A program made the position numbers. DNA of 64,000 bases from Chthonomonadaceae bacterium (GTDB lineage Bacteria; Armatimonadota; Chthonomonadetes; Chthonomonadales; Chthonomonadaceae). Below, one piece after another: positions 33,001 to 36,000 of this stretch (within the stretch, counting starts at the first letter, position 1; every line of letters begins with the position of its first letter). The stretch spans positions 1-64,000 of the forward strand of contig DASRGZ010000191.1 in the NCBI GenBank assembly GCA_035650735.1. Reading direction: 5' to 3'.

Positions 33001-36000
33001 TCGCCGATACGCTGGATGCTATCACCAGCGACCGGCCCTACCGTGCAGCCCAGCCCTTCAAGGCCGCCCAGGAGGAGATTATACGCTGCTGTGGCAGGCA
33101 GTTCGATCCGGAGGTCGTCCGGGTCTTTCTGTCCGTGTCGGAGGCCCGCTGGCACTATATCCGCTCTCTGGCCGACAAGTGACAACTCTGTAGGACGAAA
33201 GTAAGGTGGTGGGGCGGGGCGCTGCCTGTGCCGGCATGTATCAGTCCAACAGCGCCTTTGAGCCAGCAGCGTGTTCAGCCTATTGGCGGCGGAAGCATAC
33301 GCCGACAATGAAACTGATGTTTCCGAAAGGACGAGCCAGAAACCATGCCGCCTTCTCAGACGCCCAGATCCCAGGACCTTGATGATACCCCCCGGATACC
33401 GCTGCTCTTAGCAGACGACGATCCCTTGCTGCGACAGGCTCTGGCAAGCGCCCTTACGGCGGGCGGGTATTGCGTCACCTGCGCCGGGGATGGTCTGGAG
33501 GCGCTGGAATTGGCGCAGCGCGAGCATTTCGCCCTCGTCGTCGCGGACATGGAGATGCCGCACATGAACGGCGTGGAGTTAGTGGCCGCTCTGGAGGAGC
33601 TAGACCCCTCTATCGAGTGTATCCTGCTCTCCGGCATAGATAATCTGGAGCGAATCGTCCTTGCCGCTGAGATGGGCAACGTCTACAACCATTTCTGGAA
33701 GCCTTTGGAAAACTTCGGCGATCTCGTCCGCGCCGTCGCCCGCGCGCTCGAACGCCGGGAGCTGCGCCGGTCACAGGCACGTCTGCTTTCGGAGCTGCGC
33801 GATACGCGCGAGGAGCTGAGCGCGCTCTGTGGGCACCTGGAGCAACTGGATAAGGTGGCGGCGCTGGGGCATATGACCGCAGCGGTCGTGCGCGACCTGG
33901 AATCTCCCTTGATGGGCCTGCTGAACTACGCGCAGTATCTCCGCGCCCGTCTGGAGCGTGATCAGGAGGCTCCGCTGACGGCGGAGCAGGCGGATCGTAT
34001 TCTGGACTATTTGCGGGGGATGGAACGTGGCATCCGGCAGTGCCATCGCGCCGTCGAGGGCATCCTCGACTATACCCGCATTCATGAGGAGCCGCCGGGG
34101 CCGGTCCATCTGCATGAAACCCTCGGCGAGGCGCTGGAATTGATACAATCGGGCATGGAGGCCCAGGGCGCCAGCCTGGCCCTGCACCTGGCGGATTCGC
34201 TCCCGCCGGTGCTGGCCAATCCACGCCGTCTGCAGCAGGCGCTGCTCAGTGTGCTCCTGAACTCCCAGCAGGCGGTCGGCAAGTCGGGCGGGGTGGTCGC
34301 GGTGACGACGGAGGCCTTGACGGACGAGACGGGGCGTGCGATGGGCGTCTGCGTGCGCGTGAGCGACACGGGGCCGGGCATCGCGCCTGCCGTTATGCCC
34401 TATATCTTCGACCCCTTCTTTACAACGCGGCCCCGGCCCGGCAGTCTGGGGCTGGGCCTGACCATCGCGCGCAACATTGTGCGTTCCTGGCACGGTGACA
34501 TCCGCGTGGAGAGCGCGCCCGGCAAAGGAACGGTCGTGAGCCTGACGCTGCCCGCCTGCATGGAGATGGCCGTTCCGCTGGATGTCCTCATCAGAGACAG
34601 GCGCGCTCCCGATTGGGAGGATGGGCCAGACAGCGCCGAGCGTGCCGCCTGAGAATGTGTCTGGAAATACCGTTCGGGCGAATGAATTTGGGGGCTCTGA
34701 CCCCACCCCGGCCTACTGCCAGGGTCGGGCCTACAACGGTTCGGCCCTCCGCCTAGCGAGGCCCCCCCTCTCCTTCTCAAGGAGAGGGGCTGGGGGTGAG
34801 GGCGTCCCTACACCCTATCCCCTACACCCTATCCCCTACACGAGGGGCCGGGGGTGAGGTCTGGAGTGTCCGTAGGGGGACTTTGTGCTGTTGTTGCTGC
34901 GGTTTCAATCGTCCGCAGAGTGGTTCCGGGCCGAAGCCCGTAAAATTTCCGGAATTTTCTTAAGAATGGCCCTAAAAACTGGGGTATACTCTTCCGATAA
35001 TTCCAGATGAACGATGATGTAAAAGGCAAACCCACAGAAATGTGGGGACGCAAAGCCATGGGCCTAATAGGATGGGAGAGCCGCACAGGGAGGTCGTTCG
35101 TTGTCGCAATGGCTCACTATAACCCCTGATGGTCGCCAGGTTGCCGTCCTCAACGTAGGGCGACGCGAGAGGGCGTCGTTTTTACTGACCAGGAGGCACA
35201 CACATGAAGATCTCGGTTGAAGAGGTAAATCGTCTGCTCGCGTTCACGCCGGTAGAGCGTACCGGCCATCGTCCTGTTGCGGGAACGCCCTCACAAGCGC
35301 AGTCGGTGATTTCGGAAGGCCAACAGGCGGCCCAGGTGGAAATCTCTCCGGCGGCGTATGAGGTGCAGCAAGTGAAAAAGTTGATTGATGAGCTGCCCGA
35401 CATCCGAGAGGAGCGTGTCCGGGAGCTCAAAGCCCAGATTGAAAGCGGAACGTACCATGTCAGCGGCGAGGACATTGCCGATCTCATCATCCGCCGCGCT
35501 CTGGCAGATAATACGACCCTGTAAGCGCAGTTTATACTCATTACTAGCAATACGGCCAGGCTTTAAAACAGTCGGGACTGCCCAATATCGGCAGCCCCGA
35601 CTGTTTTTACATGACCCCCGCTAACCGCTCTGTGGGTAGCCCTGCTATAGCGCGTGGCTGCCTCTCGAAATAAAGCCCACAGGCTTTCGCCGTTGGAGTT
35701 TCATGGGCGGGTATACTTATTGCCAGATAGACGGACTGCTTTGGTGCCGCGCAGTTCCGGCTGGGAAGCCAGCGATGCGGCCCGCTGCGGGCGGTGGATC
35801 GCCGCGCTGGTGGTCAGTCTGGAAGTAAATAAGTAAATGTTTGTCTCCTATCTCCATGCGTATCGTGACCTACAATACCCGGGGTAGCCTGGGAATGGAC
35901 AATCGGCGCTCCACGTCCCGCATCGCCCAGGTGGTGCGCGCGCTCTCGCCGGAAGTGGTCTGTTTTCAAGAGATCCACCGGCGGCTGCCCTGGAGCGGTC

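Follow-up and report, generated by a model that had tools for sequence, protein, structure and literature searches.

Known Systems

The c-di-GMP-I (GEMM-I) riboswitches, family RF01051, have Vc1 and Vc2 of Vibrio cholerae as type members, and they often lie upstream of motility genes, as stated in part of PMC1950547. The locus described here belongs to a Chthonomonadaceae bacterium of the Armatimonadota (GCA_035650735.1, contig DASRGZ010000191.1); the window is the whole stretch of DNA that was analysed, 64,000 nt in length, and positions are counted along it. The locus shares with the Vibrio elements the aptamer fold, the contact residues and the location in cis in a 5′ leader, and it differs from the type members of RF01051 in its target, which is flgM as the apparent first and only gene, behind a sigma-28-type promoter. 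Compared with Vc1, a pairing that would mask the ribosome-binding site is clear here, as a prediction, while Vc1 lacks one according to the pertinent passage of PMC4744006.

As for the control of flagellar sigma factors, the Cd1 element (Cdi-1-3) is located upstream of the flgB operon of Clostridioides difficile, and sigD is part of that operon (PMC6366702, in excerpt). Cd1 likewise belongs to the class I riboswitches and mediates a drop in the output of a flagellar sigma factor at high c-di-GMP (same excerpt); however, it is a transcriptional OFF switch that acts on an early operon and on the sigma factor itself, whereas the element studied here is predicted to be a translational ON switch that acts on the inhibitor, within the sigma-28 feedback loop. 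In Streptomyces, c-di-GMP restrains WhiG, a sigma factor of the flagellar clade, by means of the anti-sigma factor RsiG (PMC7005675, in excerpt); in that case it is the protein complex that binds the ligand, and the fold of RsiG is unlike that of FlgM, whereas here the ligand would set the amount of FlgM. Finally, OmrA and OmrB control FlgM synthesis post-transcriptionally in E. coli and thereby tune the class III genes (PMC7602753, in excerpt); these are small RNAs that act in trans and repress, whereas the element in front of flgM binds its ligand in cis and is predicted to activate.

Taken singly, the RNA and the protein are textbook components; it is their wiring for which, as far as could be found, there is no published description, an earlier mention in other gene lists being possible. 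In the GEMM gene lists searched, flgM occurs a single time, in eighth place in the operon behind Chy-1-3 (from part of the supplements of PMC1950547), and the excerpts of PMC1950547, PMC4744006, PMC6366702, PMC7005675, PMC5737381, PMC12564702 and PMC7602753 contain no description of a c-di-GMP riboswitch directly before flgM. For Armatimonadetes, the searches returned no literature on c-di-GMP riboswitches; the riboswitch work found there concerns cobalamide.

The flgM Gene and Its Transcript

34972–35001 (+): sigma-28 (FliA)-type promoter, with CTAAA at -35, a spacing of 16 nt and TCCGATAAT at -10; 13 of 14 consensus positions
35204–35524 (+): flgM, anti-sigma-28 factor of 106 aa (PF04316 and TIGR03824)
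35565–35607 (+): strong hairpin followed by a U run 3′ of flgM, -28.2 kcal/mol, likely a true terminator

The initial annotation had called FlgM at 35204–35524, and both Pfam and NCBIfam agree: the open reading frame matches PF04316 with an E-value of 2.6e-19 and 69.6 bits against a cut-off of 25, and TIGR03824 with 58.4 bits against 40.75. Both curated cut-offs are thus exceeded by a protein of the ∼100 aa size of FlgM that has its C-terminal sigma-binding domain. The genome also contains FliA and flagellin, as expected alongside an anti-sigma-28 factor, with three flagellin-N matches over the cut-off and two sigma factors of the FliA/WhiG family over the cut-off (C63:10565-11236 and C106:12515-13177) against one FlgM. 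As a FlgM, the protein would bind FliA and be exported through the flagellum, and either of the two FliA-family factors may be its partner.

Regarding transcription, the promoter motif suggests a start at about 35007, and its end lies 23 nt from the residue equivalent to G20 of the aptamer. Motifs scoring at least 11 of 14 precede 33 of 43 riboswitch leaders of the phylum sample described below and occur in 10 of 860 shuffles, scored against a sigma-28 consensus that was in part read from these same leaders. Because of this origin of the consensus, independent support for the promoter comes from the same motif upstream of a flagellin gene on contig C207; no such motif was seen in front of the other flagellin-like gene, which is on C171. 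A search of 34300–36200 for sigma-70 promoters found 0, with 0.5 expected.

The hairpin that follows flgM has a predicted stability of -28.2 kcal/mol and would make flgM the last, and probably the only, gene of its transcript; a consensus terminator scan also called the site at 35565–35607, but on the minus strand. Read-through into flgM from the upstream kinase gene may occur. In the gap between this kinase gene and the flgM promoter (34770–34850), short direct repeats and GC-rich inverted repeats are visible by eye and resemble a small repetitive element. As for public sequencing runs, none of the 18 listed had more than 0.05 of the words; the four examined gave only short aptamer matches from other organisms and two pieces in flgM, and in one run, possibly of RNA, a contig from one relative extends over 34994–35156.

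A Canonical c-di-GMP-I Aptamer in the flgM Leader

35013–35019 (+): 5′ strand of P1, pairing with 35145–35151 in the ligand-bound fold (helix 1, paired in 91.7% of the cells of 24 relatives)
35015–35148 (+): c-di-GMP-I aptamer (Rfam match), with a variable hairpin insert in P3 at about 35065–35130

The leader of flgM carries a genuine, canonical c-di-GMP-I aptamer. The region 35015–35148 on the forward strand matches RF01051 over model positions 1–87 with 72.2 bits against a cut-off of 35 and an E-value of 8.0e-14, which reproduces the values first reported for it, and the gap of 56 nt between the aptamer and the flgM start that had been given with them is found in the sequence as well.

The contact positions of the window aptamer are G35025, A35052 and C35144, which we take to be G20, A47 and C92 of Vc2, the numbers having been mapped with the help of the Rfam structure line. 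An A at position 20 is the mark of cGAMP-type aptamers and a G that of the c-di-GMP type, and with its G at this position the window aptamer is of the latter type. G20, A47 and C92 are the ligand-contact residues named for Vc2 (PMC4744006, in excerpt); G, A and C are found at the three positions in 42 of 43 sample leaders, the G and the A being partly imposed by the search pattern.

The bound structure, made of P2 with its GNRA loop, P3 and the closing P1, is 96.4% paired in the alignment of 24 relatives, against 31–48% for slid controls; double changes occur in 7 pairs (21 cells), a level reached by none of 500 shuffles. The span of P3 is 88 nt in the window and varies from 39 to 110 nt across the sample. 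Folding of the whole leader is less distinctive, with a z of -1.92 and 8 of 200 shuffles equally good.

In the window scan, the model of the GGC variant (RF03167, c-di-GMP-I-GGC) overlaps the same site, at 35016–35149 with 63.7 bits against a cut-off of 59. This label was rejected, given that the alignment places an A at the A47 position, where the RF03167 consensus has a G; the view that the variant is defined by this position is a reading of the RF03167 consensus and of its name, and the excerpt of PMC5737381 contains no passage on the point.

The Predicted Switching Strand and the Ribosome-Binding Site

35142–35150 (+): switching strand (anti-ribosome-binding site), covering the 3′ end of P3, the junction with C92 and the 3′ strand of P1
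35191–35198 (+): ribosome-binding site, behind which a conserved CA lengthens the pairing to the aptamer

In the unconstrained (ligand-free) minimum-energy fold, 35142–35150 pairs with 35191–35198; when the aptamer is held folded in the model, P1 takes the 35142–35150 strand and the ribosome-binding site opens, so the expression platform is predicted to be mutually exclusive with the bound aptamer. Opening the site of the window costs 5.1 kcal/mol in the unbound state and 1.5 kcal/mol with the aptamer held folded, and the difference is positive in all 20 settings of temperature and length (range 0.6–4.2). Taken alone, the window is not significant, for 4/60 and 5/60 foreign leaders placed behind the aptamer do equally well, and it is across the sample that the trend emerges: the opening difference is greater than 1 kcal/mol in 37/43 leaders and below -1 in 2/43, with a median of 2.9, against 33/172 above 1 kcal/mol, 45/172 below -1 and a median of -0.1 for shuffled platforms. 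The real leader exceeds the mean of its own controls in 40/43 cases and in 11/13 families, and 29/43 leaders pass when 15 coding nucleotides are added. The only leader of family f7, the only one of f34 and two others score below zero. Equilibrium folding of this kind takes no account of co-transcriptional kinetics. The folding set leaves out L051, for which no start was found, and the alignment leaves out L050, whose leader is identical to that of L014.

These values also bear on the opposite output, a translational OFF switch in which c-di-GMP would lower FlgM and thus raise sigma-28 activity. This reading could appeal to the two leaders that score below -1 kcal/mol, to the bound fold of the window, where part of the site is weakly paired in a small local hairpin, and to Vc1, which switches without an evident anti-site (PMC4744006, in excerpt); moreover, the direction proposed here is a prediction with controls that only experiment can show. 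The OFF reading is nevertheless very improbable, since 37 of the 43 leaders point the opposite way against a symmetric control and the window does so under all conditions tried.

As for the pairing partners themselves, the CA tail is non-coding and outside the Shine-Dalgarno core, and it is found in 24/24 close leaders, compared with 45/596 GGAGG leaders of the genome and 3/77 flgM leaders without a canonical aptamer. The blocking helix is paired in 93.1% of cells in the 24 relatives; its covariation is weak, with 2 double changes, a level reached by 10/500 shuffles, and a slid control does as well, with a score of 0.098 against 0.094. One of its pairs is changed on both sides in the relative L023, from C-G to U-A. 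Cross-pairing of 53 leaders did not discriminate, as a leader's own strand and site pair better on average in 8/13 families and worse in 5, and 36/53 sites pair better with the strand of the window than with their own; pairing with a G-rich site is within reach of any aptamer tail rich in C and U.

The Spacer Hairpin and the Platforms of Other Families

35155–35185 (+): spacer hairpin, present in both modelled states, closing the loop between the switching strand and the ribosome-binding site

Between the aptamer and the ribosome-binding site, the initial annotation had noted a terminator-like hairpin followed by U residues. Both elements exist, in the form of a GC-rich stem of -13.5 kcal/mol and five U at 35179–35183, and they invite the alternative that control is transcriptional, the hairpin acting as a ligand-dependent intrinsic terminator, either ON or OFF; indeed, terminators that overlap the aptamer are common in the c-di-GMP-I family, with 78 of 322 members in the excerpted PMC1950547. 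The window hairpin, however, lies clear of the aptamer and forms whether the bound or the unbound state is modelled, its U residues being paired within the stem, and it received no call from the terminator scan. Its sequence is variable among relatives, with a U run of at least five in the spacer of just 5/24 close relatives, 0/9 in f16 and 0/7 in f29. An intrinsic terminator of this kind would have a GC-rich stem in competition with the aptamer and, after it, a U tract that is both free and conserved. The window hairpin does not fit this description, the terminator role did not hold, and transcriptional control appears quite unlikely.

The situation is different in the group formed by f23, f7, f20, f27 and f34, where 7/10 leaders have a U run of at least five and 8/10 have a strand complementary to the 5′ junction of the aptamer; these two traits make termination plausible in that group. 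In leaders of the f23/f20 type, a U-rich strand would invade the 5′ junction of the aptamer and could act through a hairpin that hides the site or as a terminator; such a hairpin is opened in the bound folds modelled for f23 and f20. In f16, instead, an anti-site just behind the aptamer is complementary to the 5′ end of the leader and would compete with an extended P1. With the folding models as a guide, the ON logic appears to be shared by further families that arrive at it through platforms of a different kind.

Distribution in Armatimonadota

The phylum sample comprised 151 genomes, 100 of which contained FlgM, with 128 FlgM matches whose loci were all fetched. An aptamer precedes flgM in 54 of the 100 FlgM-bearing genomes and in 14 of 31 families, counts that include kin, which are not independent. 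The core pattern found a canonical aptamer core up to 600 nt upstream of the FlgM match in 43 genomes from 13 families; 40 of these 43 finds coincide with listed Rfam matches, and the remaining 3 were confirmed separately by Rfam. The other contribution comes from f11, where all 11 genomes carry a variant aptamer before flgM (L110, L129, L120, L117, L096, L102, L122, L126, L130, L123 and L115), which was missed by the core pattern and has an altered P2 internal loop and a mostly GCGA-type loop, followed by a short platform; 8 of these 11 are over the Rfam cut-off, with 35–44 bits. None of the remaining 46 genomes has an Rfam c-di-GMP match at its best FlgM locus, the second FlgM matches having been screened by the core pattern only. 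Seventeen families have no aptamer among the genomes searched, and single members of positive families lack it, such as 1/10 in f16 and 2/5 in f14. The arrangement is therefore widespread, not universal, a result of the same kind as the 13 of 20 loci of the initial annotation and on a larger sample; of the earlier statement that it is conserved across Armatimonadota, the recurrence stands and the phylum-wide reach does not.

Among named records, the closest FlgM relatives are those of Chthonomonadaceae, and the aptamer is over the gathering score at 16/16 close named loci (Chthonomonadaceae, other Armatimonadota and entries titled ‘bacterium’), a tally that leaves out two weak Sphingopyxis matches. 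A collection-wide pattern of promoter plus aptamer retrieved 116 loci, 34 of which have a FlgM-like domain behind; by title, these are 22 Armatimonadota, 1 Candidatus Fervidibacterota and 11 ‘bacterium’. Apart from the Candidatus Fervidibacterota record, whose protein start is identical to one in an Armatimonadota record, this narrow search found no promoter, aptamer and FlgM together in records titled as another phylum; it used an exact pattern and a profile built from the FlgM of this phylum, and 36 loci had at most 300 nt of flank. Six other downstream reading frames, five deltaproteobacterial or Syntrophales and one from Bacillus, gave no FlgM match in Pfam.

The same pattern was seen before small or flagellar-looking reading frames in deltaproteobacterial and Syntrophales loci (L163, L165, L179, L182, L183, L185, L191, L192, L211, L212 and L230); five of the small ones have neither a FlgM match nor any Pfam family over the cut-off. 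A parallel sigma-28 and c-di-GMP regulon in these groups is possible. Within Armatimonadota, two flgM leaders of f27 that lack an Rfam match, L085 and L104, have in common another sequence that is conserved and rich in hairpins; it may be an aptamer in decay or a motif of another kind.

Regarding the variety of the aptamers, it might be argued that the RNA binds its ligand and barely switches translation, tuning mRNA stability or working as a weak dimmer, or that in some lineages it is decaying or responds to another cyclic dinucleotide. The f11 variants fit this alternative, as the folding analysis predicts no switch for the 11 of them (median 0.5 against 0.4 for controls), and so do the U found at the C92 position in L023:611-755 (-) and L048:2846-2936 (+) and the loss of the aptamer in the single members of f16 and f14 mentioned above. 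On the other hand, the bound fold is strongly conserved and has strong covariation, the contact residues are kept in nearly all sample leaders (again with a G and an A that the search pattern in part dictates) and the CA tail is conserved. These points speak against the alternative, which is unlikely overall.

The U at the C92 position of L023 is accompanied by a change of its partner base in the region of the ribosome site. The L048 element, in a record titled Chthonomonas calidirosea, is the sole RF01051 match found there among the 150 of 270 candidates scored.

Proposed Mechanism and Significance

The initial annotation had proposed that c-di-GMP is wired to motility through RNA-level control of FlgM throughout the phylum; an aptamer in the flgM leader that recurs in many families makes such control the natural reading, without the phylum-wide reach and the terminator role. 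The sigma-28-type promoter and the pairing between the aptamer and the ribosome-binding site, both absent from the initial annotation, point to ON logic, and this logic fits the general rule that high c-di-GMP means a non-motile cell (PMC6366702, in excerpt). A translational ON switch, in which high c-di-GMP leads to more FlgM and to the silencing of sigma-28, is thus the probable mode of action as judged from the folding models.

In detail, sigma-28 would transcribe a leader of ∼195 nt together with flgM, as the promoter motif suggests. Without c-di-GMP, the 3′ strand of the aptamer is predicted to pair with the ribosome-binding site, with the spacer hairpin holding the two close, and little FlgM would be made. 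Bound c-di-GMP, from what is known of the family combined with the prediction, would hold this strand in P1, in P3 and in the ligand pocket, so that the site opens. The FlgM produced would then bind sigma-28, and flagellin and the other late genes would fall; the inhibition of sigma-28 by FlgM is established (PMC7005675 and PMC7602753, both in excerpt). With FlgM made at high c-di-GMP, the negative feedback loop would close and the late flagellar genes would be turned off.

A broader proposal can be put forward tentatively, with the odds slightly against it as a whole: in about half of the flagellated Armatimonadota, FlgM may have become the effector through which c-di-GMP mainly acts on the expression of flagellar genes. 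A sigma-28-driven flgM that stands alone and is translated only from the bound riboswitch would constitute a negative feedback gated by a second messenger, supplementing or replacing the hook-completion checkpoint; the ON logic would be kept over at least three platforms, and some lineages would have changed the aptamer (the f11 variant and U92) and perhaps its ligand or the output.

If correct, the mechanism would be a third way for c-di-GMP to restrain a factor of the sigma-28 type, namely by licensing the translation of FlgM within a feedback loop, next to cutting the operon of the sigma factor, as Cd1 does in C. difficile, and arming the anti-sigma protein, as for RsiG in Streptomyces. It offers a concrete and cheap test in a little-studied phylum, and more than 50 leaders that join one aptamer to one gene by means of several platforms represent a natural set for the study of riboswitch platform evolution. 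In addition, the flgM leaders would be usable as c-di-GMP-responsive translational ON parts.

Other c-di-GMP Elements in the Genome

The genome has 10 GGDEF matches and at least 8 c-di-GMP-I aptamers, 150 of 497 candidates having been scored. One of them is a second aptamer in the window, at 31663–31747 (+), which scores 67.4 bits with the GGC model. It is similar to the leading unit of each tandem aptamer on C82 and C220, and it is followed by a GC-rich hairpin near 31820–31860 and by a possible sigma-28 -10 box near 31933. It lies upstream of a protein with receiver and HD domains, likely a c-di-GMP phosphodiesterase; a feedback on c-di-GMP itself is possible. The reading frame called from 31644 overlaps this aptamer, and its true start is therefore probably later.

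The tandem c-di-GMP-I pairs, C82:956-1290 and C220:25136-25439, each precede a 585-aa protein of the subtilase family (S8), while another aptamer, on C62, precedes a beta-propeller protein of surface type and that at C82:3184 a further reading frame. Finally, a sigma-28-like promoter match is found on C166 near 50091 (-), before an 80-aa protein that by eye resembles CsrA, and near a flagellin-N match.
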